Translations under genes and position numbers: made by a program
The notes under the pieces: model-generated
The model's input: only the letters and a program-made list of their open reading frames with translations
The model's database searches: none
Told to the model about the DNA's origin: nothing
In this document: in pieces, positions 18,401 through 46,400 of the stretch
How positions within the stretch are numbered: the first letter of the stretch is position 1
Layout of the letters: each line of letters opens with the position of its first letter
From: Octopus sinensis
Taxonomy: Eukaryota
Direction: 5' to 3'
Assembly: GCF_006345805.1 (NCBI RefSeq)
Contig: NC_043003.1
Coordinates: 85,126,001 to 85,190,000 of the forward strand
DNA: 64,000 nucleotides

Positions 18401-21400
18401 GGCTCAAGTGTGGAACTGTCGAAAGTTCATGTTCACATCTATGGGCATCACAACAATCATTAATTTACAGTCACCTGCATATGAGTACAACACCACCTGT
18501 ATCCTGTGTCATGTTAGCAGTCGACTGTGTGTGGAGAAAGCCAGCTACAAAATCATCATCCAGTCTTTTCAGGTAAACAGTTTCTTGCTAAATTGATTCT
18601 CTAGTTTGTAGGGTTCTTTTACTTTTATTCCTGAGTTGAAGCAGTAATTTTCATCAGTTTCAACAATGAGTATTCATTGGTTTGATCAACAAAATTACCA
18701 GCTTGTTGAATTAGTGCCTGAACATTCCACTAACACATCTTTCTGTTTAATGAATCCTTAATGTAGTTCTTGGGCAGAATCAGTATGACAGACAGTAACA
18801 AGGCTGTCTTTCCAGCCATTGATTTTCTTGATTGTGCTTTTGACTTGTCAGTTTCAGTGGTTGGTCCCTCAGATGGATCTGTGTTAAGAAGATCTGCTCT
18901 CTCTCATGAATTCACCTCATACAGCAACCTCTCACACTTCTTTCTTTTCAATATCATTGAGCGCTAGTGTGCCCCTATCATTCCATACACACTATTCCCC
19001 ATGACATCTCAATTCTCTCTAGTTCACTGCCCTACAATCCAGAACATTTCACATCTCCAATTCTCATGTCATGTAGCATGTGCAAACCTCTTGTTTTCTG
19101 CTTTTCTCCTCGATAAGTACACCTGATGTGTAGCTTCTTTTAGCTACTTTGTATAGTTATCTGCTTCTTTCTTACTTCCAGTCTTTCCAGATCTATCTGT
19201 TAGCTTTAATAACCTTATCTACAGTACTATTCCATTATTATATCAACTTATCTCTGGCTGAAAACTTGCCCAGCTACACATCTGCTCTCTGGTTTGCAGA
19301 AAGTTGTGACATGGGAACCTACTGATGTCCTTTATAAGTTTCCACCTCCTCTTTCTTGTCAAATTTGTCAAATTTATGACTGTTCAATAGTTCTTTAAGC
19401 TTCTGTATCTTTCTGCTCAAAATAACCTTGTGTAATTAAGTCCATCTAGCTCTTACTCTGAAGTCACTAATCACTTAAGCTATGTTGTATGTTACATTCC
19501 ATACCAAGAAATTACCTTTCTTTCAGTAAATAAAGAATATCTGGTTTGTGTGTTTACTTGACTGGTAGATAATCTTGTGAAGGGCTGGTTTTGTAGTTAT
19601 TGTTGTTACTTGTAGAGTTACAAAACTCCAGTCCTCTGTTCTAGATAAGTACCTGTTCATTGCTATTGTGGAGGTCTTATAGCACAGTTCTACCTGCATC
19701 ATTCCTCTTCCCCCATTACTTCTAGGTAGGTATAGATGATCAACATTTGCTTTTGGGTGGTGCATGTTCTTAAAAATTAGTATTTTTCTTGTCTTCGTGT
19801 CCAGACATTGGAGCTCTGTAAAATTCCAGTTAATGGTGTTACAACCTTATTGGACTTCTGGAAGTGCCAGGGTATTAATGGCTTCAACGTGAATTTTAGA
19901 GTAGAGTTCAGTTTTTAGTACGAGTCTTATTCTCCTTTAATATCATCATCATCATCATCATCGTTTAGCGTCCGTTTTCCATGCTAGCATGGGTTGGACG
20001 GGTCAACTGGAGTCTGTGAAGCTGGAAGGCTTCATCAGGCCCAGTCAGATCTGGCAGTGTTTCTACGGCTGGATGCCCTTCCTAACGCCAACCACTCCGC
20101 GAGTGTAGTGGGTGTTTTTTACGTGCCACCTGCACAGGTGCCAGACAGAGATGGCGAACGGCCACGAACAGATGGTGCTTTTACGTGTCACCGGCACGGG
20201 GCCAGGCGATGCTGGCAACGGACACGAACGGATGGTGCTTTTACGTGCCACCGACACGGGGCCAGACAGAGCTGGCAAACGGCCACGAACGGACGGTGCT
20301 TTTACGTGCCACCGACACGGTTGCCAGACAGAGCTGGCCAACGGCCACGAACGGATGGTGCTTTTACGTGTCACCGGCACGGGGCCAGGCGAGGCTGGAA
20401 ACGAACACGAACGGATGGTGCTTTTACGTGCCACCGACACGGGGCCAGGCAGAGCTGGCAAACGGCCACGAGCGGACGGTGCTTTTACGTGTCACTGGCA
20501 CGGGGGCCAGCCGAGGCTGGCAACGGACAAGGACGGATGGTGCTTTTACGTGCCACCGACACGGGGCCAGACAGAGCTGGCAAACGGCCACGAACGGATG
20601 GTGCTTTTACGTGCCACCGACACGGGGCCAGACAGAGCTGGCCAACGGCCACGAACGGATGGTGCTTTTACGTGTCACCGGCACGGGGCCAGGCGAGGCT
20701 GGAAACGAACACGAACGGATGGTGCTTTTACGTGCCACCGACACGGGGCCAGGCAGAGCTGGCAAACGGCCATGAGCGAATGGTGCTTTTACGTATCACC
20801 GGCACGGGTGCCAGACGAGGCTGACAGCGGACACGAACAGATGGGTCACTTAACCCCCGCTTTCTGATATATGATTTGATTTTGATTGTTCTCACTGGTC
20901 TTGCCGGGTCTTCTCATGCACAGCATACTTCCATAGGTCTCGGTCTCTGGTCATTTCCTTGGTGAGACCTTTCTTTTCTTATTTTTTCCTTCATTTATCA
21001 CCAGGTATTTATAATTTTCCTGTGGGTCAAGCTCCTTGATGGTAGTGTCAGTATCTAATTTATTGAAAGCTGTTTGCCTGAGCTTGCCTCTTACAAAAGT
21101 TGCTTTAGCACACTTATCAAGGCCAAAGTCTATCTCAGTGTCATTGTTGAATTCTTAAACAGTTATTAGCAGCTGTATTAGCTCTTCGTCATTTCTAGCA
21201 AACAGCTTCAGATCATCCATATAGAACAGATGGTTTATTGTCATATTGTAAACTTTGAACCCATGCCTGGTGTTATTTAGTTCGTTTGAGAGTGGGATCA
21301 GTGCCATGCAAAAGAGCAATGGGGAGAGGGAGTCACCTTGAAAGATGTCTCATTTGATGTTGATGTTGTTAGTTTGGCTCATCCCATTACTATGGTTTAG

Positions 21401-24400
21401 AAGGTTCCACTTGGCCATGATACCTTGTAAGAATTTGGAGATGACAAGAGAGATCTTATATATTTCAAGGGCCTTGAGTATCCAGTTATGTGGGACAATA
21501 TCATACGCTTTCCTGTAGTCTATCCATGTCATACTCAGGTTTTTCTTTTTGCTTCACCAATTCTCTACAATCATTTTACTTTTGAGTAATTTATCTTTGC
21601 AACCATAAGAATTCCTTTTCCAGCCTTTTTGAGCTTGTGGATAGATCTGTCAGTTAATATGGATGTGAGGATCCTGTAGGTGGTGTTGAGACATGTTGGT
21701 AGTTCTTTGGATTTTTTGTGTCTTCAGTTTTTGGTAGAAGGTATGTTGTTCCTTTGGTCAGTCAGGCAGGTATTTGCTCTGGGTTCTGGTTGACATCAGT
21801 CAGAGATGCAGCTAAAGTTTGGTGTACTTCTGTCAGACAATTTAGCCAGAAGTTAGGAATTTGCTCCAGTCCTGGAGTTTTCCATTTGTGAGATTTCTGA
21901 AGAACACATCTTAGCTCTTATATTCCTATTGCCTTCCATTTCTGCTCTTCAACTTCATCCAGTCTCACTTTCTCACGGTCTATCCAGTCAGCTTTAGCAT
22001 TATATTCTTTTCTGTTGCTCTATATCTTCTTCCAGAACTCTTCCATTTCCTCAGTCTTATGTGGTTCCTTTACTTCTATCTTCCTTTTGCCAGTTTCCCT
22101 ATAAAATTTCTTTGCATTCCTCTTGAATATCTTATTTTGTTGATAAAATTTGATTTGTTTGTCATTCCTTCTGAGCTTTTGGGCTTTCAGTTGTATTCGT
22201 TGTCTCAATTGTTCCTCGGTTGCAGGGAGGTTTATAAAATCTTTGATTTTATATTTTTGCTTAATTTTTCTAGCTCATTTCTTCTTAACATTTACTCCTC
22301 TAGCAAGTTCATCGAGAACTGATACATCTACCCACAGAGATTCAATCTCTTTTTGTACTGCTGCTTTCCACTTAGGAGGTCTATTGACATGGTTGGTCCT
22401 TTTCTGTGTTGTCCTGATACCTAATTGAGTAGTTACAACTTTAGCAGTGGAATAGATGAGGTTATTTAAGGCCGTTAAGTCATTTCCCTTATTACTTAAG
22501 ATCTGTCTAAAAGCAACATTGTATATCATGATTATGTTGTTTTTTATGCTGTTTGAGAATTTTGCCAGTTGTTCTCTAATGATGATGTCAGTAGTTCTCT
22601 GATAATATCTTCTTTTGCTTCTATGATTTTCTCTTTATTATTCACCTCAAATTTTATGTCATACCATTTCTGGTGTTCCTGAGGTAGGTATACTTCCTCC
22701 TCTTTTTCCACATATCTGTTTTTCACTATTCTTTCTTTAGCTTTCTTGTTAAGATATACTCCTCATACACTGGGTTCTGTGCATCTGTTACCTATTTCAT
22801 CTGCATTGTTGCTGTTTTCATTTGGTGTACCATGAGATATTTGTATTCTAATTTGGTTAATTTCAGCATCAGTCAATCTTTTATTCTTAATAATGTCTCT
22901 ACATACATTACATAGTTTATTTGCATCTATATATTTGCATACTTCATTGCCTACTAAGTTTCTCCAGGAAATATAAGTTTGTACTGAGAGGTTATTGTTT
23001 GGATATAGTTGGGCTGTATATAAAGCCTTCAACACATCTCTATAATCCTCTCTAGTCCATTTCATGTATTTTGCTTTAGGTAAGGTTTTTGGTGGTATTA
23101 CTACAGACCTAGGGTTAGGGTTATCATGGATTTGGTTACCTAGTATTTCGTCCATCTTTATGTTCTAAGTTCAAATTCCTCTGAAGTCAACTATGCCTTT
23201 ATCCTTTCTGGAGGAATTAAATAAGTACCAGTTGAGACATGGAGTTGATCTAATCAACTAACCCCTGCCCCCTGAAATTGCTGGCCTTGTGCCAAAATTT
23301 GAAACCATTATTATTATTTCAATTTTAATAATTAATAATTATCAAAGAGGCAATTGCCTCACAGAGGCAATGACCAAGGTCTTTGGTATTATGTTGTGCT
23401 TGAGAAGACCCATCAAGCCAAGCAAAATCACAGTCATGGTAGATACCACTGTCACGGAAATGGCACCTGTGCTGGTGGCACATAAAAGCACCCATTACAC
23501 CCTCAGAGTGGTTGGCATTAGGAAGGGCATCCAGCTGTAGAAAATGATGCCAAATCAGACTGGAGCCTGGTGCTTGCTTTTACATGCCTTCCAGCATGCC
23601 AACCCACTCAAACTGCCCAACCCATGCTAGCATGGACAACGGATGTTAAATGATGATGATGATGATGACATATTCAGCTTTCTCTTTTCTTTTGTAGGTC
23701 AAAATCCTGGCTCATGATATCCAAAGTCTTTCTTATGCAATTATTACATTAAGCCAGTTGTTCAATTTATACAAAACAGAATCAGGCATCAGTATCCCAT
23801 TATTAGAAGTAAGTTTCTGCTTTTTACTCTTTTCACAGTAAAATTTTGGCTCGATCTGTAAGTGCTGAAATAGTGTTGTTTTCAAGGAACCAAGTTTATG
23901 TCACCAATTTGCCAATGAATGTAATTATTTACTATGAATTAATTGTTAATTTATTGTTTTAGTTAATTACATGTGTCTGTGTGAGTCCCCTACTTGTATG
24001 TGCCCCATTTGCTGATTTCTATTATGCCTCTGGTATATACTTACTGCCCCCACCCCACTCAGTCAAGTGGGCTTGTCTTGTGAGTTACTTGGTGACCCCA
24101 ATAATGCCAATTCCATGAAAAAGGGACCCAGTATACACTGTAAAGTGTTTGGCATTAGGATGGGCATCCAGCAATAGAAACTATGTAAAAGCAAGTATTG
24201 AAGACCAACACAGCCCCCTAGTTCATCAGATCCTATTTAACTGTCCGACCCATGTCAGCTTGGAAGCTGGACATTTAATGATGATGATAGTCGTGATTAT
24301 GATATACAGATAAGTTACTTAATTATCCCTTCTGAAATGTGTAGTATATTGACTGTATTGATTTCATGTATTCTAACAAGCAAGGTGATATTTATGCAGT

Positions 24401-25446: not shown

Positions 25447-26085
25447 TATGACGGGCTTCTTTCAGTTTCTGTCTACCAAATCCACTCACAAGGCTTTGGT
25501 CGGCCCGAGGCTACAGTAGAAGACACTTGCCCAAGGTGCCACACAGTGGGACTGAACCTGGAACCATGTGGTTGGTAAGCAAGCTACTTACCACACAACC
25601 ACTCCTACGCCTATTTAACTTATAGTTGGGACCCAGACAGATGCTACTACTCCAAGTCAGAGCAGACTTAGAAACAATAGTGGCTGAGAAGTGGTCACAC
25701 TCCTCAAAACCTTACAACTCCCAAACTAAAGTCCAACTACCAAATGTAGTTTAAAGTCATACCCAGGACAGAATAGTGAAACAAACCCATTCCCAGATTT
25801 GCTACCATTAATGTTTAATTTCATTTTATATAGAAAATCTTAATTCACAGATGCAGTTAATTTATTCTTTGTAAAAAAAAAAAAACCAGCAATATCACAT
25901 ATTATGAAGGGAAGTATTCCAACATGGTCATAGCCACAATGGCTAAAACAAACTAATCAATATATGTAATTGCTCTGAATATAGTCATTATCTTTGCTTA
26001 GATTACAGATTCACCATCGCTGCCTTACAGAGGAGTTCTACTTGATGTATCTAAAGGACGTGTACCTAATATAGTAAGTTTCAAT

Positions 26086-26119
<34 letters not shown>

Positions 26120-29100
26120 AATTATCTAACTGAATATATCACATGACCAACCAGACTGTCAGATGTTATTACATGTCACTGGGCACCATCCTGCTGGTGC
26201 ATCTCAGCAGAGACAAAGAAACCAGCAATGATAGCACAGGCAGATATTGAAGCTGTACTGAGATGTATTAGGGATGATACCAAGTACATAGCAAGAGGCA
26301 ACAATACGGCACCATTTCAGTGCTTTTCAAGTCAGAAACCTTCGCTATGAAGCACTCAATGGCCCCTTGCAAAAACCAGCAAGATCATTATGTATTCATC
26401 CCATTTGGGAAAAAGAATAGTGCATATCCACATTCTCAGGATTCCACCAGGACTTGACATGGTGGCTTCTGGGATGTGTAATCAAGCAAGGGTCAGATAC
26501 CATCCCGATAGAGGTGACAGAAACTGCCAGGGTGGATTTGGAGATACTTCTCCAGATCAAGTCCAAAGACTTCACAAGAATCCCAGACCACATCAATCTC
26601 CAAAACAGGATGGTATTGCACATAATGACTGAGAGCAGAAGGCCGCATTGTTTCATTTGTGGAGAAACTACTCATTTGTGAGCTTTCTGCCCTCAACTGA
26701 TAAAAAGTGCAAGGGGTCGATGGCCTCCATTGCTGCCTATGTCAGGACAAGGATCACAAGCAACACTGGCTGATAACTTTAGGCCCATAACTCTGCTGAA
26801 CACAGAGTTTAAGATTTTGGCATAGGTCTTAGTGAAGAGGTCGGCACTTGGCATCAAAGATTTAGCTGGGGAGGTGCAACATGACAACCTCTACTTCATG
26901 CAATACATCATAGAAAGGGTAGGATGTAAACCTAGATTCGGTGGCACTGTTGCCAGGCACTTACTGCCCTCTAATAGGTGGCAAAATCGGTCAGTAGAAC
27001 ATCCACTCTTGAATTTTAATAGAGGGTTAGTGGTGGAAAAGTGTGATGATGCACTCCGAGAGGCTCTGTTCTGGAGGACTTTTGAGCCTGGGATGATGGA
27101 TAACTTCCAGAAATCCCTTGCTTGGCAGTGCTAACAGGGGGCACTCTGTCAATGTCAAATACCAAAGAAGCAAATAGTTCTCTTTCTTTTTCTTGTTTTT
27201 ATTATTTTGGTTTGTTTTAAAAAAAACAAATGTCTAGTATATATATTGTACACAATTTTGTTTATTCTGATGAATTATTTAGTCCCCCCACCACCACTAA
27301 AATAAGACAACTTTGGACAATATGTTCTTTTGTCTGTTACAGGAAACTCTGAAAAACATGCTTGACAATATTGCTTACATGAAGTTTAATCAGGTACTAT
27401 GAATTATTCATTTTCGTAAACTTTTTCTTGTTATTTCTGTTTATCTTGCATACCAAAACTTGCTGACATTGCTTCAATTTTTCATCTATTTGCACATTTG
27501 ATTGACTGATTGATATCTCTTAAAGATTATAGATAGGAACAGGTTTATATTTTGTTGTCAACGTCGGCAGCATCTTGGTTCCATAACATCTAAGCCCTGC
27601 ATCTCCATCCAGACACCATGCATTCAGTTTCTATATTTTCCTATGAGCTTCCCTTCACCATCAATGGGTCAGCTCAAAAAATAGCATACCCATGACCTGT
27701 TGGGTCACCAGGGAAGTCTGAGTTTCCCAGCAACAGAGTTTTGTTTTGTAGGTTTTTTTTTTTCTTTTCCATGTTATTTTGCATGCTTTCAACAAATATG
27801 ACATCAAAATCATGCATAACTGGCTCCTTTCCCCAGAAAAGGAAAGATTTGGCTGCTATTTCTTGCACACCCTGCTACAACATAACAGTTCAAGTCCTTT
27901 ATTGCAAATAGCTGTTACATGGTAGCAGGGCGTGCTAGAAATAGCAGCCAAAGTTTTGGAGGTGAGATATGTTGAACGCTCTCGAAAGAAACCTATGGAA
28001 AAAGACTATTTCACATTAAGGTTATGAAAAAGGTCTTTTTCAAATTATTTACCTTATTTTAAAAGTCATTTTCACTTAAAAATATTTTACCTATCATAAT
28101 GTGTCTGATGGAAAAGTTAGGGTTCTTTCCCTTTCAGAATGAAGTTATTTTCGGAATATTTTCCCATTGTGCACCATTTTGGGTATTTATACCCCAAAAC
28201 CCCAAATATCTCAATAACTACTGGTCCGATTTACGCGAAACTTGTTTTATTCCATTCATATTCACATTTCAGGGGCACTTTACTTTCAAAGTATTTTCCC
28301 ATTATGCACCAGTTTGGCTGTGTAACATTGCAAGCAAGCAAGATTAAACTTCACTCTTAAGAGTATATATAGATGGCAGCTATATTCATTGCTTTAGACA
28401 ATCTCTTTCTGGTAGCTGTATAGTGATTATAGTGATAACTGGGCCTAGTGCTGTTCACCCACAGGACACATGCCAGTTGAGAGTCCATCACCTGAAGTTC
28501 TATCCTTATTTAGGCTGTTGTTTGTATTAATTCTTTTATTCATTAATCTCATACTGAAGAAAGTGGTAAGGTGTCATGGCCATCAGTATTTTTATCAAAA
28601 CACCATTTTTTGAGGGGTTTGCCCCAAAAGACTCAAAGGCACCTCTCTACCCTTAAAAGAATAAGTTAGCTACAAGTAGTAGTAGTAGCCGTGCTACTGT
28701 TGTTACTTTCTCTTCCATATTCCTTTTTCTCTTCAGATACATTTGTACACTCGATTCCGGTATCAAACCAGTTCAGCATGGCAGTTGTGCTACAGCTGTA
28801 GGTATGTATCTACTATAATAATACTCTTGTGTGTTTCTCCGTCACAACATATGAATGAGAAAGGAAGGGGTGATGGCAAATTTGGTAGTGGGATGGTGGA
28901 AGTTCGACAGTGGAAAAAAAATCGAACAGCGTTTCAACTCTGCATGTGTATGTATGTGTGTATGTAAAAGGAAGTCGTGTGTGTGTGTGTGCATGCGTGC
29001 AATGGAAGTAAGATGGTGAACATTCAACACTGAAAACAAACATCAAACAGCATTTCAACTCTGTGTGAGTATATGTGTGTACATGTACAAGGGAAGTATG

Positions 29101-32100
29101 TGAATGTTTGTATCTGTGATAATTTTGTACCTTATATATAATACAATTAGCCATCATTTTTGACGGCATGGGGCCAGCTAGTATAATACAATAATCTTTA
29201 CAACATCCCCCCACCATCTTACATGCTTCTACCAAATACAATATGAACCAATAAGAGAGCCTTTTTTTGGTTGCCAAACTTGCTAGAAATAGCAGCCAAA
29301 TCTCGTTATGGCAACACCATAGTAATCTTAAGAGAAGAACATTGAATAATGCAGATTTGAATGCCCACTGACTGAACAAAAGACAGTAATGGCCACAGTT
29401 TAAATGTCTTTGATCATATGTCTGCTTAATTAGGACTTAAAAGGGATTCAAGATTGAAGCTAAGTTCTTAGTACTTCACGATATCTATTCTGACTTTCTG
29501 CACTGTGATTTTGAATCCCACCTAGATCAACTTTGCCTTTCATCTCTTCAGGATTGATAAGAAAGAAGTACCAGTTGAATGCTGTGTGGCAGAAATGTAA
29601 GAATATCAGACTAGATGTCTTGTGCTATTCGTTAAGGTTCTTTGCAGTCAGTGTTCAAATCCTGTCATGGTGTTCTTGCATAGTAGATTTAATCAGTCAC
29701 TTGGTTTAGCACAACCAGTTTATAGCCTTAGGTGCTTTTAGTAGAGTCAACTTTGCTGCAAGCACTCAAGACAGGTCTCCTGTTCGTGGATACCTTCTTC
29801 CTTCCTTCCTAGCAGCTTCAGAAACCCTGTACAGAGTTACAAGTACTGCCTTCACTTTTGATAACTGGCAATCTGTTGGTTACAATGGTGAGTGTTCCAG
29901 TTGATCCAATCAACAGGAGTGCCTATGTGGTAAGTAGCTTGCTTACCAACCACATGGTTCCGGGTTCAGTCCCACTGCGTGGCACCTTGGGCAAGTGTCT
30001 TCTACTGTAGCCTCGGGCCAACCAATGCTTTGTGAGTGGATTTGGTAGACAGAAACTGAAAGACACTCATCGTATATATATATATATGTATGTATGTATA
30101 TGTTTGTGTGTCTGTGTTTGTCCCCCCAACATCGCTTGACAACCGATGCTGATGTGTTTACATCCCCATAACTTAGTGGTTCGGCAAAAGAGACCGATAG
30201 AATAAGTACTAGGCTTACAAAGAATAAGTCCTGGGATCAGTTTGCTCGACTAAAGGCGGTGCTCTAGCATGACCACAGTCAAATGACTGAAACAAGTAAA
30301 AGAGTATGCAAATAGCCGAGCATGCCACAGACACACATACCCTTAATGTAGTTCTCAGGATGATTTTGCATAGCACAGAATGTGGCAAAGCTGGCCCTTT
30401 GAATTGCAGGTACAACTCATTTTTGCCAATTTAGTAGACTTGAGCAACATGAAATAAAGTGCCTTGCTCAAGGACATGATGCACTGCAGGAAATTAAGTA
30501 GTAAATTTCTGTTTTGCTTATACTTTTGTGTCTTTCCTTCAGAAAGATGTTGTACATAATATCAATGTTTATAACATGAATTGTTACCTATTGCAGTGAG
30601 CTGTTGGAGATTGATAAGTTCTGCATGGATCGAGGCATGCAGTTGATTCCAGCAGTTGATGTTCATCCGTCTGTCCAATTTGAAGATTTGCCATTCTTGC
30701 AATGTGTATTTTACGACTATATCTCACATTTTACTAATTCAGAGTAAGTAACCACATTTCATTAAAGTTTACACATTCGTTTAACTGTTTTATGTTCATA
30801 GTTCTCTTGCTCTTTCCTACTTTCTCTCTTCTCTCCGACCTCTCTCTCTGTCTCACTCACTCTCTCTTCCCATCTATTTCTCCTTCTCTATCTGTTTATC
30901 AGAAGTAGAGAGCTTACTCTGAGCCCATTCATTATCATTACATATTTTTTCCTCATTTTAGTTTTTTTCCTCTTCAGTTAAGCAAGGAACTATAAAACCC
31001 TATGATGCAAAGTTTGGCTTTCTTTCAGACAAATCTAAAATTGTCGTAAACAATGCAGCAGCCTCATTATTGTTTCTTCTTTTTCTCATAATTATTATAG
31101 CTATTAATTTAATTACTAATAGCAGTGGATGCCAGAAACAGACTGACTTACAGTATCGGGTTAGTTCTCTTTACATAGGGGTGGTTGAAAGCTTCTCTTC
31201 ACAACCACATGGTTTCACATGTTATTCTACTGTGTGCCACTTTGATTCAGCTAAAACTAATAATAACAAATATGGTTATAGCTTAGAAGATATTTCCTTC
31301 TACACATGCGAAAGAATTTTAAAGAAACTGCCTACTTTTTTCACAACCATCTCACGAATACACATTCATGAGATGGTTGTGATCTCTAAACAGTTTTGAG
31401 TTGGAAATGGAAAGAGATGCATGAACATGCAACACGCATGTGCACACTGGATTTATAAAAAGAAGAGAGGAATAAAAACACAACACAAATGTCAAACAAG
31501 TTATATGATAGTCTGCATGTCATGTCTGGCATCACTATCATGCAGCTTTGCAATATGGACTGTTTAACCAACTTTGCTCATTTCTTGGGAAAAATATAGA
31601 TCAGTGGTTCTCAGCCATTTCTTTTTTGCCTATGGACTCCTTTGATTCATATTTTGCTCAGATGGACCCCTATTGCTATTCAATGTTTAAAAAAATCCTA
31701 TTATAATTTTAGAATTAAAATATTGTCAGCAGTTCATCATCATCATCGTTTAGTGTCCGCTTTCCATGCTAGCATGGGTTGGATGGTTCAACTGGGATCT
31801 GGGAAGCCAGAAGGCTGCACCAGACCCAGTCTGATCTGGCAATGTTTCTACGGCTGGATGCCCTCCCTAACGCCAACCACTCCGTGAGTGTAGTGGGTAC
31901 TTTTTACATGCCACCGGCACAGGTGCCAGACGAGGCTGGCAAACGGTCACGATCGGATGGTGCTTTTTACGTGCCACCAGCACGGAGGCCGGTTGTATAA
32001 AGAATTGTTAAAATATTTTGTTTATGGTTGAAGTATAGCTATTTTATTGCATATAAACTTGAACAGCAAAATCTTATATCAACCCTGGTTGAGAACCTTG

Positions 32101-33223
32101 TACATAGATGATCAAGATTCTTTTTCTTGTTTACAAGTAAAAAATGGTGAGTAGGTATGGAGCGCTTGTGAGGGAAAGAAAAGCATTGCTGAAGGCTATA
32201 AGAACTAGAGACAAGCATGTGGAAAAGGAGCTATTGCTGCAGGTCACATTTATGTTAAGCTGAAGAGCCAGAAGAGGAGAAAGAGTTCAATGATGACTTC
32301 TGAGACAAGGACTATCTTTGATGATTTAGTAACCGATTATTCATCTCACGATAAAAGGGGAAGCATCAACAACATGAATGAAGAGACCTTGAAAATATCA
32401 TCAACAGTGAGGAAATGCAAAGTATATTTAACTATGTATGCATTATGTGTACATGTGTGTTTGTGTATATTTATATAATGCTTCTCTTTATATATATATA
32501 TAAAATACAAAATGGGACAAGAATGCAAAACATCCAGACAACTAGGTGATACAAAAAGGGACAACAAAACATCCAGATAGACGATACAAAAAATAAAACA
32601 AGGACAGGTCATTTGAATCTTTCTATCCTCAGTCAAGAACCGGATCATCCTCGCAATTTCAGCTCATTAATCTTGAGATTGCTCCAATCTGGCTAGCCCC
32701 AAGGAAAACTAAGCTAAGAGCATTAGATTCCTTGGAAGAAAGCATCAAATATATACGAAAACAAAGACGGTAAAACAGACGATGTTACACAAATATAAAT
32801 ACAAAATACAATACAAATAATAATAATAATAATAACAGTGCATAACAACAGGTGTCTTTCGACTGGGAACGAATTGAATTAAACTGGCATGTGTGGAAAT
32901 GAAGCCTTATGGCTCAGATAAAACTTTCACAAACACAGGGAAGAGTATCGATGTGGTAGTGACCATGGTCAGACACAAAAAGAGGGCTAGCAGTCTGGCC
33001 TATCGGTCACGTGAGAAGAGAAGAAAGAGAAAAAGGGGAACAAAAGAATTAAGGAGGGAGAAGAGAAGAGAGAGAGTTGTAGAAGCAGATGGACAGAAGA
33101 ATTAAGGAGGAGTGAGAAAAAATGACAGGGACATAGTGAAGTGAAAAGTGAGTAAGAAAAGAAGGCAAAGAAATGTGAGAGGGGGAAAGAAAGAACGAAG
33201 AGTGGAATGAATGAATAAGCATG

Positions 33224-33259
<36 letters not shown>

Positions 33260-33576
33260 ATGTGTAGGGAAGGCATTAGCAGTGAGAAATATATTACACA
33301 AATGTAATTCTTTTTCCAAAATAATTTTTACTTCTTATTCAATGTTGATGAAGTTATAGGATGTTATTCAGGCACTCAGCTATGAGTCCACTGCATCTTA
33401 TAGAAGAAACAGCTGTAAGCTAATGTATTTCATAACATGACTGTTTTTTTTTTTTTTTTTTCTTTGTCATCTTATTTTCTTATTAACATTCTATATTTGT
33501 CTAACACTTCATTCTGAAGCATATATATATTGAGTTCTACACCAAGTTATTAGTCTCGCAATGCCTAAGTGAAATC

Positions 33577-33629
<53 letters not shown>

Positions 33630-36600
33630 TACAGGGTACGGTGAATAAACTGTCATCTAAATTACGCAAAAACGAAAATAACGGTGATATCTCATTTTAA
33701 CAAATATATTTACCAAAATTACATGAAAATATTTTGAAATACTAAAGAGTAAATCTATTCAATAAAATCGCCCTTGGCTTCAACCACAGCTGCCAGATGA
33801 CTTTGGAATCTCCTGCAGCTCCTCTGGACAGTCATCTTGTTTGAGTTGGTGAATGCTGCCATAATCTTTACCTTCTTTGGAGTTACAAGTACGATGGGTT
33901 GGTGCCTTCCTCTCAGATCGCTCCTTCCAAGTTCAAATTAATGGTTCGCGGTCCGACGTCTCCAGTGCGAGCAGTGGCGTGCCTCAAGGTTCAGTGCTTG
34001 GGCCCTTGTTGTTCTTAGTCTTCATAAATGACTTGCCCGACGACCTCACGCAACACACCCTTCTATTTGCCGACGATATCAAACTGGTCGCTCCTCGCGG
34101 TAGTATAGAGGATCTTCGTCGATGCCTCCACCAAATTTGGAAGTGGTCTAACGATTGGGACCTGTGTCTGAACGTGTCAAAGTGCTGTCATCTGCCTGTC
34201 GGCTCTACTCCTGCAACTCAACTTGATTTCGAGCCGGGTCGTCTGCTGCTGGAGAGGACCGATCAGGTAAAGGACCTGGGTATCTTGGTGGATTCCTCTT
34301 TTTCGCCTTCGGCCCAGTGCGTCCATGCTGCCAACAAAGCGCACGGAATTCTGTTTTTGATTCGACGGTCATTCGGAATGCTCACAGCAGCCATATTCCT
34401 ACCACTCTATGTCACGCTGGTGAGACCCATATTGGAGTATGGGATTCAAGCCTCTTCTCCTTATCTCCTCAAAGACATACAGCATCTCGAAAGAGTCCAG
34501 AGGCTGGCTACCCGCATGGTTCATGGTCTCAAAAATTCATCCTACGAAGAAAGGCTGAGGACGCTCGACCTTTATTCTCTTGAAAAACGCCGCCGCCGTG
34601 GTGATCTCATTCTCGCCCACAACATCATAAGCGGGAAGTGTAACCTCTCGAAAGAGCTGTTCTTCACTCCTGCTCCGGAGCGTCGGCTGCGGGGTCATTC
34701 CGAAAAGCTCTACCTGCGAAGGAGAGGAGCTTTCTCCGTCCGGGTTGCGGATCCGTGGAACAAGCTGCCAGACGAGATGGTGAAGATGCCGACGACCGCT
34801 TTGTTCAAAGCCTCCCTGGACCTCAAGTGGCCTGAACTCTTTACATGAACACCACCCTGTACTTAACTCCATGTCCCCCTACATGGCCTTGCTATTTGCT
34901 TTTGAGCCAAATTAACTAACTAACTAACTAACTAACTAACAAGTAGTTTTGTTGGTCTCTCGCTCAACTGTACCCCACACATAATAATCAAGGGGGTTGC
35001 AGTCTGGAGAGCTAGGTGGCCAGATGTTAGAGGTGATGTGGTCACAGAAATTGTCTGACAGCCATGACTGGGCTCTCTTGCTGGTGTGGCATGGTTCAGA
35101 GTCCTGTTGCCAGACATAGGGTCCAGCATCCACCCTCTTGATCTAGGGCAGCACTACCTCCTCCAGGCACTTGATGTAGGCCTCCATGTTGAGTCTGAGG
35201 CCATGTGGGAAAATGAATGGAGGCATAACATCGCTATCACTAGTGATCACTCCAAACACCATGATGTTGACTGAATGCTTGATTTTTATCACTCTTGATA
35301 CATGTTTTGAGGACACAGCAAGCCAATGGTTGTTCTGTGCGTTCACCATTTGATCCTGGCAGAAATTTTTCTCATCTGAGAAAAACAAAACATGTTTGGT
35401 TGGTGGGGATGCTTGAGTTTGTTCAAAATCTTCATAGCATGATCTTTCCTCTTATTTTTAATGGCTTGGAATAAAAATTGGCCCTTTCTCATCTTGTATG
35501 AGGAATACCAAATGCCTTCAAGTACTGTCTGCCTAATAAGAAACTCAGACATTCCCAAGTCCCTGGCAATGGACCTGATTGACTTGGCGGGATCATTGTC
35601 AATCATGGTCTGGATCTCACCGACAAATTCGGAAGTTCTTTTCCTATCAGAATGATCAGAGTGAGTTTTCCAAGCTGCCATACCTTCATCATTACCATTC
35701 TGTACCTTCATCACCAACTCTTTCCAAATCCTCTGTACTGACCTCATATTGACATCCAAACACTCTGAAATGTTCATTTTGGAACTTCTGGCACAAATGC
35801 CAAGCAGTACAGCATGTCATTTCCAAATTTCTGGCAGAGTGAATTGCATCATGGCACTATTTTTCTCACAAATGGTGCCCAACTGACCCCACTATACTGT
35901 GTAGTTGACCAAATCAAAAACAATGCACATGTGCAAAATTAAAAATATAAAATGGTGACAATTTACCCATCGCACCCTGTATATATACAGAGAGAGACAG
36001 ACAAAGAGAGAGAAAGAGAGTAATGAAATGGATTTAACATAACATTTGTAATCTTTATCTCATCTACAGCTTTATTAATGTAGGATCCCGTCTTACTAGT
36101 TTTCTCTTGGAATATCCTGATGATGACACTTTGAGCATCGCAGATGCTAGCAAATTTCTTCCAATAAAAGACAAGACTTTGTTAATAAGTGGCTCATCTC
36201 TCCATGATATAAAACAGCGTTTGATACAACGACTACCACCACACTTAATGTTTGGTGAGTATGGAACACAGGTAAGACAGCTAAGTGGATTTTATTTAGT
36301 TTCTGTAAGCCCCTATGAGTTGACAGGGACAGTTGAGTGCCAGGGTAAATATTTCAGTCTTGGCCCCTTATATTCACAGTTCAGATCCTTCTAAGGTAGA
36401 CTCATCTTTCTATCATGCAAGAGTTGATAAACTGTGTACCAGTCATACACTGGTACAGTTCAACTGTATGTCAGGTTTTATTTTATTTAATAATGCATTT
36501 TGTGAACAATAGTGTCATTGGTGGCAGGTTTCCATTTGGTCTATTATTGTTCACTATATTTACAATGTTGTGTAACAAGGATCATCTTTATCTTTTACTT

Positions 36601-38263
36601 GTTTCAGTCATTAGACTGTGGCCATGCTGGGACTCCACCTTGAGGAAATTTTAGTCTAACTAATTGACACCAAGATTTATATAAAAAATTTTTTTTGTTT
36701 GTTTTTTCCAAACCTGATACTTTGTCATTGGTTGAATTTACCAAGCCGCTAAGTTACATGGACATAAACACACCAACACTGGTTGTCAAGCAGCAGTGGG
36801 GAACAAACACTGGCACAAAGACACACACATATTTTATACAGATTCTCTGTCATTGCCTTTATGTGATTCAACCTCCTGAGATGAGCCTTCACCACATCTC
36901 ATGTCATCTTCAATCTTCTTCTTGAACAAAGCATCACATGATAAGAGATCAAACCAATTGAAATGTTGTATAGATGTAAATATTGCTTTCAAATTTTGGC
37001 ACAAGGCCAGCAATTCCAGGGCAGGGTTAAGTTGATTAGATCAACCCCATTGCTTATTTCATCGACCCCAGGTGCTTATTTCATTGACCCCCAAAAGGAT
37101 GAACGGCAAAGTAGACCTCAAACATAAAGACAGACTAAATGACACTAAACATTTTATTTGATGTGCTAATTATTCTGTCAGCTCACCTCCTTGTACACAT
37201 GCAAATATTGAAAATTATTTCATCTATAAAGCTAATATAAAAATCCCCAAAATTTTAATTGTGTTCCTGTGTAATTTTTACAATATGAAAATTAATTTCT
37301 TCTGGGTAATAAACAACAACAAAAAAAGTAATTGTTTTCTTCTTTCATAGGCCACCTATAATTTTGTGCCCCACTGCAAGCGTCTTTCTGAATATGGGTA
37401 AGTTCTATATTCATATAATTTTACCTTTGTTCTGGCATCTCACAGGTTTGGGATGTCAAAAATTTCTGTGTAAATTAAACACGAATTAGTAATTGTGATC
37501 TGCTTGTGTTCTGTCAACAATGCATTGGTTGGTTCAAATGTCACACCTTGGCTATCTTTTCTCTAGGCACACACATCATAACAGTTTACTACTATTTTAA
37601 CCTTCTACTTAAAGTCTCTCGTTTTCCATTTAGTAATAATTAAACAAGAAATATCAAACACAGCAGTTTTTCTTTTTCTCTATTCACCTAAGGTTACTTT
37701 CATTATTTTTCTTCATTTATATTTAAATAACAAATTTCGTTATTAGCATTGTCATAGCAGTGAAAACTGGGTCTTTTGACTCACTTGTGCCACAATCTTC
37801 ACAATAGCACATACACACACAGAGATAAACATGAATTTGTTTGCATTATTTTATATTCTAGGTGTATCTGATGTTTGTATGCTTGTGTGGGTACTCTGGA
37901 AAAAACAGAATGAATCTGGGGGAAACAGTTAGAGGGGGACTCCATCAAGACCTATGTCCTTGAGTGGGCAGGAACTACTACTAAAATGGAGTTCAGATGC
38001 ATTTGAATGTCCACTTTTCCATGCTTGCATAAATTGGACTTTATTTATATGTGTATATATATATATGTGTGTGTGTGTGTATGTTTGTGTTGAACCATTA
38101 ATCCTGACACATTTTTTCTTCCTCTGTTTTTCTCCTCTCAACCCTTTCTGTCAAAGAGCGTAGGCTCAAATTGTCAAAGACTTCCATTCTTCCCAAGCAG
38201 CCAACTAATACACCAGCTTGGTGTTTCCTCACCAGTTTTCATCTTTTGTTTTCTGTAAATTCA

Positions 38264-38315
<52 letters not shown>

Positions 38316-41300
38316 CATATATATACACATAAGTGTGTGTGTGTGTGTACACATTGGACTTAAAGTCACAAGCATACACATTTTCCAATTTCATTTTGAT
38401 TTTAGGTTTGGTTTCTTTGTCTGTCCAGGCACTGCAGCCTGGAACAGTCTGGCTGGCTTCCCAGAGGCAGCTGTTGCCAATATATTTAATGCTGCAAAGT
38501 GTGCCTCAACCCAGTCAGGCCTTGGTCTATTGGTATGCCATTGGGCTGGTAGCAGCTTTCTCACTCACTCACCATTCTGTTGGCCTGGTTTTGTCATCAC
38601 TGCTGGCCTCGCCTGGAACAAGGATATACACTGGGTAAGTTAATGGTAATATAAAACACATCTAAGACCCTTTTTTTTTATCTTCTCCATATATTCTGAT
38701 TCTTACTACCTAAAAATTTTAGAGATATCATAACAGCTTCCCAAGGCATTCATTGTGGCACTTGATCTTAGTTGATTTATTTTTAGCTTTGTTTTGACAT
38801 CTGTTTTATTTGATTTATTGTAGATTTGTTATTGTTTAGCTCAAGATTATCCTTGATTGAGCAAAACTGCTACACTGTGAAAATTTTTTTTCTTCTTTTT
38901 TGTCTTTGGTTACTAAGTGTTATTTCCTATTTGCTTCTATTTAGAAATCAAAGGAAGGAAATAACTATCATTCCCTTCAAACTTTGCTTTTGTGACTGGA
39001 CATCAATGTTTTGAAACTGACCTATTTTCCATTACATTTCAGACAGATTCAGTGCTGAGTTGCTGAAGCAGAAATATTGTTATAGCAAATATTCTGCTCT
39101 ATACCATAGATCTGATTGTCAATCACTTGACCATAACCACTTGAGCATGTCCCTTAGTGGCTGACATTATGTGCATCTCTGATCATAAGCAGGAGTGTTG
39201 GGGGAGCATCACAACCATGTGGTGAGAGGGATTTTTTGGGGTTTGAATAGATAAATGTAACAAGAGCAAAGTATGAAGAAGTATTAGTCGTTTCTCATAC
39301 TTTCTGGGGGCAAGCAAATAGGAAATAACAGCTGCTACCTAAGGACAAAACTCATGTTACACAGTGTTATCAAAGGTATTCCAACAGTGATCATTCCATC
39401 TTTTTTCTCAGACATAGTGTATCAGTGTTTACTTAGTGTATTATTCCATTTCTAAGTTAGTAGGGATGATATAAGGGCAATTTGGCTTCTTTTTCTAGTA
39501 GCTTGAATAGCCATGTAAAAACACTTTTGTTGGCTCATTAATGTAGAGAAAATTAATGTAGGTTCTACCTTCTCATTTATTCTATCTCTCTGCAAGCATT
39601 TTGTGCATGTATCTCTTTAAAAACACAACTATTTTGTTTTGTTTTTCGGGGCTTTTTTGCTTTACACTTTGACAAAAGTATTTTGTGTCAAATATTAGAA
39701 TATTTAATTATTCTAAGTCTCTAAATTAATCAATGTTTTAAGGTGTTCATCACCTCCAGATTAAGGTGGTGGGTTGGCAGAATCATAAGAGCTTTTGGCA
39801 AAATGTCTCATAGTATTTACTCTGGTTCTTTATGTTCTGAGTTCAAATCCTGCCTAGGTCGTCTTCTTGTTTCAGCCGTCCAGTGTCACTAAAATTAAGT
39901 ATTAATCCAGTGTAATGCATTAGTGATATTTTTAAACATGGTAGCAAATACCATGCTGTATTTATTGTGACTCCTTACAATCTGAATTCACCTGCCGTGA
40001 CAATGGTGCTTTGTTATAGTAGCCCTTACCATTCCCTTGGATAACATACATTGCTAACCTTGACCAAGTGAGACCATTGAATTTATGTAGATCAGTGGTT
40101 CTCAACCATTTTTTTAACTATGGATCTCTTTGATTCCTATTCTATTCAATGGAGGGGGACCCTTAACATCTAAAACTCCTGTTATATTCTTGTGACTAAA
40201 TATTATTAGGAATTGTATAAAAAAATTGTTTGAATATTTTGTGTATTGTAGAAGTACAACCATTTTATTATCTCTTATCTTTTACTTGTTTCAATCATTT
40301 GACTGCAGCCATGCTGGGGCTCCACCTTGAAGTGTTTTAGTCAAACAAATCGACCCCTGGACTTATTTTAGTTAAGCCTGATAATTATTTTATCGGTCTG
40401 TTTTGCTGAACCACTAAGTTACAGAAACATAAACACACCAACTTTGGATCTCAAGCAGTGGTGATGGGAAGAGACACAAACAGACATGGACACGCTCACA
40501 CACACACACACACACACACATATGATGAGTTTCTTTCTGTTTCTGTCTACTAAATCCACTCACAAGGGTTTGGTCAGCCCAAGACTATAGTAGAAGACAC
40601 TTGTCCAAGGTGCCATGCAGTAAGACTGAACCTAAAACCATATATTTCAGAAGCAAGCTTCTCACTGCACAGCCATGCCTGTGCCTATTACAGGCTATAT
40701 AGACCCCAGTTAAAAACCACTGATCTAGATTATATATATATATGCTAGGATATAATGTGAAATTAATAATTATTTCTAGCATAGGTACATGCTCATATGT
40801 TATAGGAGTACACAGTTGATGCAGTCAACACCAATATTTCACATGATTTGATGTTAACAACCCCAGAAGGATCGAAAGCTAACTCCAACCTCAACCAAAT
40901 TTGAACTTGAAACATAAAAGGCCATAACTAAACATGCTAATACAGCCGTCTACTGATTCTACCAAAGATATAAGATTAAGAGACTAGAATTTGAAATCAT
41001 AAAATGGGAGGTTTTTAATAATAGATTTTACTCCCAAATATTTAATTTCTCATTATTATCAATGACTCTCTCTCTCTGCTAAATCTTTTATCAATTTTAA
41101 TTTAAACTTCATTAGCAGCAATGTTGTTATTAATATGTTCTCCATGCCGGTGGCACGTAAAAAGCACCATCCGATCGTGGCCATTGCCAGCCTTGCCTGG
41201 CTCCCGTGCCGATGGCACATAAAATGCACCATCCATCCGTGGCTGTTTGCCAGCCCTGTCTGGCACGTAAAAAGCACCCACTACACTCACGGAGTGGTTG

Positions 41301-43455
41301 GCGTTAGGAAGGGCATCCAGCCGTAGAAACACTGCCAGATCAGACTGGGCCTGGTGCAGCCTTCTGGCTTCCCAGACCCCAGTTGAACCGTCCAACCATG
41401 CTAGCATGGAAAGTGGACGCTAAATGATGATGATGATGATGATGATGATGTCTGCTGTTTCCATGGTGGCATGAGTTGCGCAAGAGTTATTGGTTTTCTA
41501 GGTTAGATGGAAACTGAGAAAGTCTATCATATATGTGTATGTGTGTTAGTATTGTGTTTATCCACTATTTCACAGCTAGTGTTGGTTTATTTATGTTCCT
41601 GTAACTTAGCTGATCAGCAAAAAGTGAGACATACCAGGCTTTAAAAAATAAGTACTGGTGGAGTGGCAGGGGGTTATTTATCTGACTAAACCCTTCAAGA
41701 TAGTGAGATAGTGCCTCAATATAGCTGTAGTTCAGTGACTGACACAAGTATAAGGTAAAAGATATACAATGGGCTTCCATACAGTTTCCATCTGTGTTAC
41801 AAGCTCCATGTTAGAAGTAGAGCCTGTGAGATAACATGCTGTTGAATGCATGATGTTGGCAACATTTATGTTTACAATTAAATTTACTTACCGTAAATCC
41901 TTGAGTATAGTCCGCCCTTGAGTATAATACGCAGGGGATTTTTAGTGGGGCTGTACCTCTGAAAATCCTAAACTTTGTATATAATACACACCCCTTCTCT
42001 AACTTGAGTCGTGCTTAATTAAGCCAGCAGCACCAAGTCGAACAAACACTTCCGTGCATGCGTAATACAATAATGGTGATGTTCTTAACTGTTATATGGG
42101 AATGTAAATATGTTTGCAAATTGTTTTTGTTACATGTTATTCTGTGTTCTGAATACTTTTATTTTAATAAATGTTGCTTACTGCAAGTTATGGATGATTC
42201 TTTTATGACTTCATTGCTTTCAGGCTTAGCTTAAGGTATTTTCCCGCCCGACATCACAAAATGCATTTAAATAAATATTGCTGGACAGCAAATAGAGACT
42301 CGGACATTACTTAGAAAATATTTTTCATTTTTAACCTCGTATATAGTACAAACTAGGGATTTTGACCTTTAAATTTTGGGAAAGAAATGCGGATTATACT
42401 CGAGGATTTACAGTACATCATTAGTCATTTGCAATATATTTGTCTACCTTCCAAAGGTTGCAGATTGTTGTTTAGCCTTTGGTTGGCTTTGTTCATGCAA
42501 ACTTAACAATCAAAGATGTTCCAAACATGATTTTGCATATTCAGGATTATCTTATTCAGTGTACCTTTTCTATTATTGAGACAGTACTGTGTGATTTGAG
42601 AGATATTTGACTGTTATCTTTAGCAGGTCAAGGAACTATCTATTGGCTCAATTATAGTTAGCTGTTTAACAGGAATCCATTAAATAAATTAGGCAATTAG
42701 AGTTTATGTTTCTTCCATAAGAACACAACATACTGGCTATAGTAATAAATCATACATTGATGATCATAGCACCCAGTTGTCCAGCATTTTAAAACTCTTA
42801 ACCATTGTAATGTAGGGTCAAAATGGGGAGGGATCCTTAGCTTCTGTCTAAATATAATGATAATTCTATCAGATCTCATTCTTATTTCAGGAGTTTCTTC
42901 AGAGCAATCTGGCAGACCTTATGAACAAACATATATTTCGTGATGATTCTTCTGTTTTTGGACAAGTTATCATTGAGTTGGGAAGAATTGAGACCTACGT
43001 CTATCGATGTTCCCAAAAGAAACAAGGTAGGAAGCTAGTTCCTGTCAAAGATAATGGTGTGTGATTTTTAGTTCCTGTTTTGTTGATGCTATTAAATTCT
43101 ATTATTGAAACAAAAATATTTTATGGTGACCACAAGTGACAAATGAGTATTAATTTCTTATTCCCTGCATGGAAAGGAAAATCATCATTATAATGTCTTG
43201 ATGTGTTGTCAACACACTGTTTTCATCAATACAGTATCACCAATTGTATTAAGTTTATTACATTTCTTTTTTGCTTTTGTTATTTGTCTGCTGCTGCTGT
43301 TCTTGAAAATTGTTTGGTAGTTTTATTTCTGATTCTAATACTCCTAATTATTCCCTTTTTTCTTTTTCTTTTTTCTTCTTTTTTGTGCAACAGGTTTGTT
43401 AGAGCTTTGACAAAGAACTACTTGTGGTGTATAGTAGTTTTATGTAAGGGTAGTC

Positions 43456-43499: not shown

Positions 43500-46400
43500 T
43501 ACTAGGATATCTGAATTTACTTTACAAAGTTTTCATACTGAAAAAATTTTTTATTTTACTAAGATATTGAAAACAACAAATCTTGCTTGTTTTTTTTTTC
43601 TTTACAACTTCAGCAGTCCCCAAAAATTTTATTTGGCCTAGTTTCTGCTTTTTTTCCAATGTATCCCAAAGAGAAATATCACTGCTCTCTCCTTAAGCAT
43701 AGGAGTGGCTGTGTGGTTGCTTAACAACCACATGGTTCCGGGTTCAGTCCCACTGCGTGGCACCTTGGGCAAGTGTCTTCTACTTTAGCCTCAGGTTGAC
43801 CAAAGCCTTGTGAGTGGATTTGGTAGACGGAAACTGAAAGAAGCCCGTCGTATATTATATATATGTGTGTGTGTATATGTTTGTGTGTCTGTGTTTGTCT
43901 CCCTAACATCACTTGACAACTGATGCTGGTGTGTTTACATTGCCGTAACTTAGTGGTTCGGCAAAAGAGACCGATAGAATAAGTACTAGGCTTACAAAGA
44001 ATAAGTCCTGTGGTCGATTTGCTCGACTAAAGGCAGTGCTCCAGCATGGCCATAGTCAAATGACTGAAACAAGTAAAAAGAGTTATGTACAATTATTCAA
44101 CTGTATCCCACTCCACTGCTCCTTTTTTATGCTTACTATATGCTCTTTTGATGACCTTTATCTCCTCTTTTTTAGATGATGACCAAACCTCTCTTCCTTG
44201 TGAAAATGGGTCCACTCTTACTAATTTCCTTGTGCGACCTGATGAAACAAGATTAGAAGACTTAACAGCAGATATTCTACAGGTAAGGGATTAGTTCAAC
44301 ATTTCAGTCTTTTTATGCTGTCCTGTGGCATCAGCAACCTTTATATTATCTCAAGTCCTTACCCCTCTGACTCATGTATATAGGTACATACAGTACTCGT
44401 CCTTCCTTGATATTCTCACATACCGGTATACCCAGACACTAACATATTGATAGTGCTGTACTCAGAAATCACAAACCTACATACATATCCATTTCCTTCC
44501 CCCATAACTACCATGAAGTCTGTATGATAGCAAACAGAACTTTTCCTGTCTATTTCTTGATAAAGAGCCTCTGCTTGAAACACCGTTAGAGTTCCTTTCC
44601 TCATTGCAACAGCATTTAATTTTAGTTATTACCACATTTCCTTTGTATTACTTGTTGCCAACACAGACCCATATCAGATTCCTGTGATTTTAGATTTTAC
44701 ATTCAGTCTTTATGTATTGCTGTCATCATATATAGTCTTTATCAAATCTATTTTAATTGACCTATGGCATAACAAAATCTGAAATAAGCTAAATAAAGCA
44801 TACGATGAACACTTCTTGCTGCGGCTGTCCTGTCTAAGAAATAATGTTGCTTTAGTTATCTATGTACAATACCTAATAGATTTTGATGTTTATATACAAG
44901 CACAGACATGGTTCTGTGGTTTAGAAGTTCACTGCTCTACCATATTGTTCCTGGTTTGATCCAGTGCATGACTTGATCAAGTCATCATGAAGCAATAGTC
45001 TGTCTTCAGGTGCCCTTCTTCACATAACACTACTGAATGGGATATTTTGTTAATGAGGGATGTAACCTAATATCGCTGTGCCCACATGGTGACAATGTGA
45101 AGACAATAACAACATACAGGAAGTTTGCTTCCCAGCCATGTGATATGGGGTTCAATCCCATTGCAGGGTGCATTGAGCAAACACACTCTACTTTAACTCC
45201 AATGTCAACCAAAGCCTTGTGAGTGAATTTGGTACATCAAAACTGAAAAAAAAACTCTTTTTATTTTTTTTCTTGTTTCCGTCATTAGACTGTGACCATG
45301 CTGGGACACCAGCTTGAAGAATTTTAGCCTTCTATTGTTGTCAACCAAAGCCTTGTGTGGTTGGAAAGCAAACATCTTACCATACAATCATGCCTGCACC
45401 TATATAATTGTTCACATTTTCCCTTTTAAATAAATAGACGTGCTTCAGCATATACAAGATTATGTTTCAATTTCTTTGTCCACTAATTGTATTCAGTTAT
45501 CCACTTCTATGTATGTTATATATAGACAAATACACACACATATAATAAGTTTTGTGTCTCTTAATTCAAAACTGTTTCAGTACTATAATACAATTTGTTT
45601 TCTGTTATCTAATTGAAGCGAGCCAACCGCCTTCTACGGAAGCACCAGTCTGATGTAACAAGCATCCAGTTGAATTGTCCACAATCAAAGGAAATCATCT
45701 CTGAGGTGCTTCTCACAACAGACATGATGATCCTGGCAGTACGGCAAGTATCATAACAGTTCATAATTTAAGAAATGTGTCTGAGTATACTCGTCTGGTT
45801 CTAAAAAGATACATTTGCGATGCACAAATAAACTCGGGATAATCCATTAAGGGGTTAACAAATAATGATTGTAATAAATCAATGTAAGATCTGTATGTGG
45901 CCATCTGACATGCTAGAAATAGTAACCAAATATTCCTTAAATTGTATCCTACCAATAGTTTCATTATGAATCATAGCAGAATCTACATACAGAGGTCACA
46001 TCAGATTAGATTAATTTTGTCATGATAGTTTGATAGCTTAAATCAAAATCATTATCATCATCATTGTTTTATGAACAGTTTCCATGCTGGTATGGGTTGG
46101 AGATGTAACAATCTGAGTCCTTTTATAACAAAAGCTACTACTCTCAGAGTGGTGTCCATACATGTCATTTTAGCTTACCTTCTAAGGCTAAGTACCTTTC
46201 CTGTCGCCAACCACTTTAGAGAGTTCACTGGATGCATTTTCTTGTGACACCAGCACTAAAGAGGTTAGTAAGTTCTCAGCAAGATAGAACTTAATGGGTC
46301 TATAATCCTGCACTTCCTTTACGTATTTGTTTCCCCATTTTACAGTGTGTACTGGGTGCATTTTTAGTGGTACCAGTACTAAGGAGATTGTCAAGTTCTT

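Follow-up and report, generated by a model that had tools for sequence, protein, structure and literature searches.

An ankyrin-fused GH20 protein of Octopus sinensis is likely a pseudo-glycosidase conserved across animals

The stretch of DNA analysed here (the window) comprises 64,000 nucleotides of Octopus sinensis contig NC_043003.1, positions 85,126,001 to 85,190,000 of the forward strand. The gene at this locus, LOC115214018, encodes a 926-aa protein; it starts 5' of the window and stops at 50494. Seven of its exons lie within 26002-38634, the segment that a first-pass annotation had read as a probable pseudo-glycosidase with a dismantled GH20 active site, and these account for residues 443-713 only. 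The protein consists of ankyrin repeats, a linker, a GH20b domain, a GH20 barrel, and a helical domain III of the GcnA type. The features are listed below; octopus residues are numbered on P0001, and exon limits within 3909-13573 are given to the nearest whole codon.

L088:2597-2692, exon upstream of the window, residues 1-32
About 3909-3986, 6441-6593, 10400-10528, 10975-11109, 13463-13573, plus strand, five coding exons of the ankyrin-repeat domain, residues 33-236
15587-15745, plus strand, linker exon, residues 238-290, poorly conserved (alignment) and predicted to be disordered (low pLDDT)
17552-17713, 18390-18575, 23701-23808, plus strand, three exons of GH20b (PF02838-like), residues 291-442
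26002-26073, plus strand, exon for residues 443-466, barrel beta1 with DVSK (K460 in place of the substrate-binding Arg; D457 retained)
27343-27393, plus strand, exon for residues 467-483
28737-28801, plus strand, exon for residues 484-504, beta2 with LYTR (Glu replaced by R489)
30597-30743, plus strand, exon for residues 505-553, beta3 with IPAVDVHPS, without a GH motif and with the loop shorter by about 35 residues
30658-30660, plus strand, codon of D526
36070-36271, plus strand, exon for residues 554-621, beta4 FINVGSRL, beta5 ISGS, and beta6 EYGT
36071-36094, plus strand, FINVGSRL, with R561-L562 in place of the catalytic D-E at 36089-36094
37351-37397, plus strand, exon for residues 622-637
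38406-38634, plus strand, exon for residues 638-713, beta7 CPGTAAWNSLAG (W649 kept) and beta8 CHWAG (W683 kept, G685 in place of Asp)
42891-43025, 44175-44282, 45619-45744, 49107-49223, 50339-50494 (TAA), plus strand, five exons of helical domain III, residues 714-926
49206-49220, plus strand, T870-D871-L-A-N874 motif, found by alignment, with coordinates computed from the exon mapping

All seven exons within 26002-38634 have AG/GT boundaries and together form a single open frame of 813 nt, and the spliced translation is identical at every residue to RefSeq XP_029638897.1 (P0001), confirming that the reading frame is intact as first annotated. The last of the seven, used as a query, returned P0001 at 100% identity and had a single match in its own genome. 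The 5.3 kb intron 30744-36069 could conceal an exon, and the annotation had noted that a missed exon there might supply the GH and DE motifs. Four transcript-like contigs, one per run from four studies, were aligned to 36040-36300; that the source runs are RNA is a guess, as none is recorded as such. In all four, the end before 36070 was exon 30597-30743 and the end after 36272 was exon 37351. Position 30743 is thus joined directly to 36070 and the intron is skipped, indicating that no exon was missed. Candidate AG..GT open stretches scanned within this intron contained no GH or DE motif.

Several repeats lie in and around the introns. Intron 30744-36069 contains a 327-aa LINE-type reverse transcriptase frame at 33865-34848 on the plus strand (Pfam RVT_1, E 1.5e-14), nested in a minus-strand transposase remnant (about 33680-33860 and 34950-35816) that by eye is Tc1/mariner-like. 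Broken retroelement-like frames, including a zinc-knuckle-like CFICGETTHL, occupy 26150-27140 (plus strand) in the intron after exon 26002-26073. A degenerate duplicate of ankyrin exon 6441-6593, with 76% identity and stop codons, was located 180 bp downstream of it at 6775-6913 (plus strand). A GC-rich tandem array of 12 copies of a 61 bp unit spans 20117-20844; similar units at 31900-31990, 41145-41264, and near 56900 suggest that it is a dispersed octopus repeat.

Pfam recognised ankyrin repeats in P0001, followed by weak matches to GH20b and GH20. The latter was short (residues 450-486, E 6.5e-4) and scored 19.6 bits against a cut-off of 22.3, a weakness that could be taken as a sign of artefact. 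NCBIfam gave ankyrin matches only, all sub-threshold, and ankyrin proteins alone appeared among the 60 matches listed in a PDB search with the full-length profile. In contrast, hhalign against a bacterial GH20 set (PF00728/PF02838 proteins) gave E 1.6e-82 over 564 columns. An AlphaFold2 model built from a 61-sequence alignment (mean pLDDT 87.7) contained an eight-stranded barrel together with the GH20b, ankyrin, and domain III folds; pLDDT fell below 50 in the linker (236-300). The best solved matches in Foldseek were GcnA and GH20C (E 3.4e-17), and the best in VIA-align was GH20C (Z 25.3, rmsd 3.9, 503 aligned residues); model residues 713-915 aligned to the helical domain of both enzymes. 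The hhalign score and the identity of the best solved matches imply that the likeness to GH20 is not due to chance, and the predicted barrel following GH20b agrees with the retained scaffold described earlier. Judged by profile and predicted fold, the octopus protein is a member of GH20, placed outside its active enzymes. Matches in ESM Atlas comprised clusters of bacterial GH20 proteins and a single unnamed cluster rich in arthropods, with no function indicated. A simple hydropathy scan of five proteins revealed no obvious signal peptide or membrane segment (maximum over 19 residues, 1.47-1.65); this result and the N-terminal ankyrins suggest that the protein is likely cytosolic.

The active site was compared in a MAFFT alignment of 132 proteins (43 bacterial, 3 choanoflagellate, and 86 animal), in which 16 of 65 nematode matches were used, near-identical cluster members were omitted, and the group labels of unnamed proteins are our own. 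Bacterial sites are numbered on P0043. Fourteen active-site positions were invariant in all 43 bacteria, those in beta7/beta8 (W393, W427, D429) being assigned by invariance and strand position without a printed alignment to a solved enzyme. The bacterial motifs align with those of GH20C and lacto-N-biosidase (DVSR/DCSR, LYIEH/LYMED, FGH/LAH, VGLDE/IGMDE, FWGD/MWSD). The octopus protein retains three of the 14 positions (D457, W649, W683) and has changed 11: R155 is replaced by K460 (DVSK), E184 by R489 (LYTR), D295-E296 by R561-L562, W339/D341 by S594/S596 (ISGS), W362/Y364 by Y618/T620 (YGT), and D429 by G685 (CHWAG), while G229-H230 is absent. The aromatic cage therefore keeps two of its four Trp (W649, W683), with one changed to Tyr and one to Ser. 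Each of the substitutions first read by eye, including the DE-to-RL change in FINVGSRL, was thus reproduced against 43 bacterial relatives. The shortened loop and missing GH motif after beta3 were borne out as well, the beta3-to-beta4 stretch measuring 36 residues in octopus against 59-79 (mean 70) in bacteria.

H/N-x-G-x-D-E is the catalytic motif of GH20 (PMC11308363, partial text), and mutating either the D or the E of a Vibrio GH20 left less than 5% of activity (PMC4752478, partial text); the octopus protein reads NVGSRL after beta4. An Arg and an Asp/Glu that grip the sugar hydroxyls in subsite -1 are likewise conserved (R95/D376 in GcnA; PMC4449183, partial text), whereas octopus has K460 and G685 at these positions. 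Two other octopus GH20 loci that were inspected both retain PGH and GGDE. The acids of EYPDDD, named in the annotation as possible catalytic substitutes, were rejected: each column is at most 46% acidic in 80 bilaterians and 0-6% in 16 nematodes, and in the model these acids sit after a helix, not at the end of beta4. Judging from these motifs, the octopus protein very probably has no hexosaminidase activity.

The same loss was detected in all the animals compared. The catalytic D-E pair is present in 43 of 43 bacteria and two of three choanoflagellates but in none of the 86 animal orthologues, which range from sponges to nematodes, amphioxus, and molluscs. The acid/base Glu is missing from all 86, and the neighbouring Asp remains in four (one sponge and three cnidarians). 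The beta1 Arg was found in five animals, the beta8 Asp in one, the beta5 Trp in five, and the beta6 Trp in none; the beta2 Glu persists in 16, all nematodes. A [GA]H no more than 12 residues away from the beta3 Pro occurs in two animals, both horseshoe crabs. The beta3-beta4 stretch is 69 residues long in two corals and 54 in Sycon, whereas bilaterians have 33-46. W649 and W683 are each absent from all 16 nematodes; because the nematode barrel is only 19% identical to that of octopus and aligns weakly, some of the nematode losses may be misalignments. An artefact or a decay confined to octopus (a missed exon, a misalignment, or a recent pseudogene) appears extremely improbable given the exon junction in the contigs of four studies, the open frame, the confident fold, and the identical loss in 86 of 86 animals. 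The fold is conserved and the relatives are active as judged by motif, yet the catalytic D-E pair is gone along with the His, the Arg, and most residues of the subsite. This pattern supports the pseudo-glycosidase reading and suggests a catalytically dead enzyme that animals have likely kept since their origin. The N-terminal ankyrin domain, the spread across animals, and the intact choanoflagellate orthologues go beyond what the annotation had available.

The ankyrin-GH20 fusion was present in choanoflagellates, sponges, cnidarians, molluscs, annelids, nemerteans, priapulids, arthropods, nematodes, echinoderms, a hemichordate, and amphioxus. No named match came from a vertebrate or fly, although absence from these groups or from other eukaryotes cannot be concluded as the search of representative proteins was crowded by unrelated ankyrin proteins. 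Salpingoeca kvevrii P0186 keeps all 14 active-site positions; folded without an alignment, it gave an unusable model (pLDDT 37.9). Monosiga P0221 also scored 14 of 14, with a clear VGLDE, but its GH match is doubtful because the gene model seems to miss a segment around beta3. Diaphanoeca grandis P0171 keeps eight of 14 (GFGE, FGN), apparently through a separate, independent partial decay of the site. Motifs suggest that the choanoflagellate and bacterial relatives are probably active.

Quick maximum-likelihood trees of the post-ankyrin part (72 rows under LG+G4 and 38 rows under LG+C20), both rooted by choice on four divergent bacteria and supported by SH-aLRT only, separated holozoa from bacteria (96 and 100) and recovered animals (100 and 100) and bilaterians (100 and 98). 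The trees match the organismal phylogeny, implying that the catalytic site of an ankyrin-GH20 enzyme, probably active until then, disappeared close to the origin of animals. One loss on the animal stem explains this most simply, but the long, unresolved branches of sponges and jellyfish leave room for other histories. In this view, the common ancestor of choanoflagellates and animals would have had an ankyrin-GH20 enzyme of bacterial type that was probably active; its acid/base Glu would have gone on the animal stem or close to it, before bilaterians deleted the beta3-beta4 loop (about 35 residues) and neutralised the pocket. From the bacteria and holozoa sampled, a bacterial origin of the GH20 part by transfer is plausible.

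The pocket has not lost every constraint. At D526, where beta3 ends, an acid is present in all 80 bilaterians, both sponges, and three of four cnidarians but in none of the 43 bacteria, a point absent from the annotation that counts slightly against a fully dismantled site. Acids also occur in 97% of bilaterians at D457 and in 93% at E657; conserved acids therefore remain around the barrel mouth. Both W649 and W683 are present in 36 of 36 spiralians, indicating that the spiralian pocket is still constrained. The net charge of eight pocket positions moves from -5.0 in bacteria to +0.17 in spiralians, where R489 (35/36) and R561 (36/36) replace acids. This shift may fit an internal salt-bridge plug and a pocket for a new ligand alike.

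The remodelled pocket could itself be the working part of a dead enzyme, acting as a lectin-like module or as a sensor of a metabolite or peptide (cf. YKL-39 and Klotho) whose signal the ankyrins relay. The spiralian pocket, turned from acidic to neutral by the new Arg residues, could take an anionic ligand, W649 and W683 are retained in 61 and 63 of the 86 animals, CPGTxxWNSLAG is conserved from bacteria to molluscs, and the acid at D526 in all bilaterians keeps the idea alive. However, the sugar-gripping Arg and Asp/Glu are nearly gone from animals, R561 is not kept beyond spiralians, nematodes lack both Trp, and the new Arg may merely form salt bridges with D457/D526 that plug the pocket. 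We consider this explanation rather unlikely. Less probable still is a re-tooled enzyme catalysing another reaction through D457, D526 and/or E657, through C594/C643, or with a partner completing the site in trans. D526 did become acidic in animals as the D-E pair disappeared, but it aligns with the Asp of the ordinary GH20 motif PEIDxPGH, which we take to be a second-shell position. Moreover, no His, Cys, or second strand-end acid is both new and universal, and pocket residues vary among spiralians, deuterostomes, and nematodes.

Invariance is highest outside the pocket, a distribution that speaks for a scaffold or adaptor role. Ankyrin R18 and D20 occur in 90 of 90 ungapped rows and D63 in 91 of 92, and T870, D871, and N874 of a domain III helix occur in 87, 88, and 88 of 89 ankyrin-fused proteins, compared with 12-16% of the 43 ankyrin-less bacteria. 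Nematodes have lost W649/W683 yet keep T870, D871, and N874 in 16 of 16, which suggests that animals as a whole have in common something other than the sugar pocket. Identity between octopus and Gigantopelta is 53% in the barrel, 54% in the ankyrin domain, and 48% in domain III but 14% in the linker; the barrel is thus under constraint. In our view the ankyrin/GH20 fusion is likely a catalytically dead pseudo-glycosidase, with a probable role in the cytosol as a scaffold or adaptor. Its retained job would be to bind proteins, with the ankyrin repeats and the T-D-x-x-N helix of domain III as contact surfaces that may pack together or meet on a common partner, while the barrel would act as a rigid spacer. 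The ankyrin/domain III interface is a candidate suggested by conservation. On a fuller reading, towards which we lean slightly, this would be an undescribed animal-wide GH20 pseudoenzyme in which a pre-animal fusion of a bacterial-type hexosaminidase with ankyrins was stripped of its site stepwise as animals arose and turned into a cytosolic adaptor with a new ankyrin/TDLAN interface. Arg, His, and Glu would have been lost first, the loop and Asp in bilaterians, and the Trp cage in nematodes.

Among solved enzymes, Streptococcus gordonii GcnA and S. pneumoniae GH20C (2epn, 5a6b) share the body of GH20b, barrel, and helical domain III (VIA-align Z 24-25 over about 500 residues), although they are only 11-12% identical to the octopus protein, which lacks their catalytic D-E, His, Arg, and Asp and has an added N-terminal ankyrin domain. 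The octopus model aligns to them only until about residue 575-582 of 627, leaving unmatched the C-terminal tail, which in GcnA completes the active site of the partner subunit (PMC4449183, partial text). The closest relatives outside holozoa, with full-length homology, are the P0043 group, uncharacterised GH20 proteins of 620-660 aa from Chloroflexota, Acidobacteriota, Planctomycetota, and others. These have 14 of 14 active-site residues and neither ankyrins nor the TDLAN motif. No ankyrin ORF was detected near them in 80 loci (L008-L087). These loci share no fixed gene neighbourhood; some adjoin sugar-catabolism genes, and GH1, GH3, galactokinase, BadF-type kinase, LacI-type regulator, and GFO oxidoreductase genes recur in 3-6 of the 80. 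HEXD of subfamily 1 (T. suis HEX-2, 8qk1) and HEXA/HEXB of subfamily 2 share the GH20 barrel but, unlike the ankyrin fusion, carry H/N-x-G-x-D-E; HEX-2 also has a C-terminal helical bundle (PMC11308363, partial text) and aligns to the octopus model with Z 22.9. The profile of the bacterial group matched the choanoflagellate protein with E 4.7e-189, and the A3 profile matched HEXB chains with about E 4e-19. The fusion is far nearer to the bacterial group than to HEXD or HEXA/HEXB and therefore looks like a separate lineage; on the fuller reading above, GH20 would have entered the animal lineage independently for a third time. The pseudoglycosidases YKL-39 (GH18), Klotho (GH1), and CyRPA (GH33-like) use a non-catalytic fold for binding (PMC7828330, partial text). 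They belong to other GH families, are extracellular, and mostly keep the ligand groove, whereas the octopus protein belongs to GH20, carries ankyrins, and is likely cytosolic, and its choanoflagellate orthologue is apparently intact.

Pseudoglycosidases as such are known, but the ankyrin-GH20 family is apparently undescribed. A full-text search of mostly non-subscription literature found no description of a GH20 pseudoenzyme or an ankyrin-GH20 fusion, and the word ankyrin is absent from the accessible text of two GH20 phylogenies (PMC11308363, PMC2492878). The C. elegans orthologue is T16G1.9 (NP_506239.1), on which a search of the same literature found no publication; supplementary screen tables may name the gene. 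The analysis corrects the labels beta-N-acetylhexosaminidase, tankyrase, and EIF3k carried by many invertebrate proteins. The tankyrase label was rejected since nine of nine proteins scanned have no SAM or PARP domain and residues 305-915 are GH20-type, and the EIF3k label (e.g., C. elegans entry Q9U367) is unsupported by domain content. Nematode entries P0274, P0275, P0282, P0287, P0297, and others fuse the family gene with PF10075 (eIF3k), and these are probably merged models of neighbouring genes.

The family offers a rare gradation: the enzyme is apparently intact in the unicellular organisms closest to animals, and a dead but conserved protein in sponges, cnidarians, and bilaterians. The conversion of an enzyme to a scaffold at the origin of animals thus becomes directly testable in C. 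elegans and with choanoflagellate proteins. With no named vertebrate match, medical relevance is limited unless a wider search finds one. GH20 matches were also found on small unplaced contigs (G000:C10756, C12762, C8695, C8999, C8615, C12603, and C9733) as closely spaced pieces with internal stops; these differ from the chromosomal loci and are possibly contaminant DNA or DNA of another organism.
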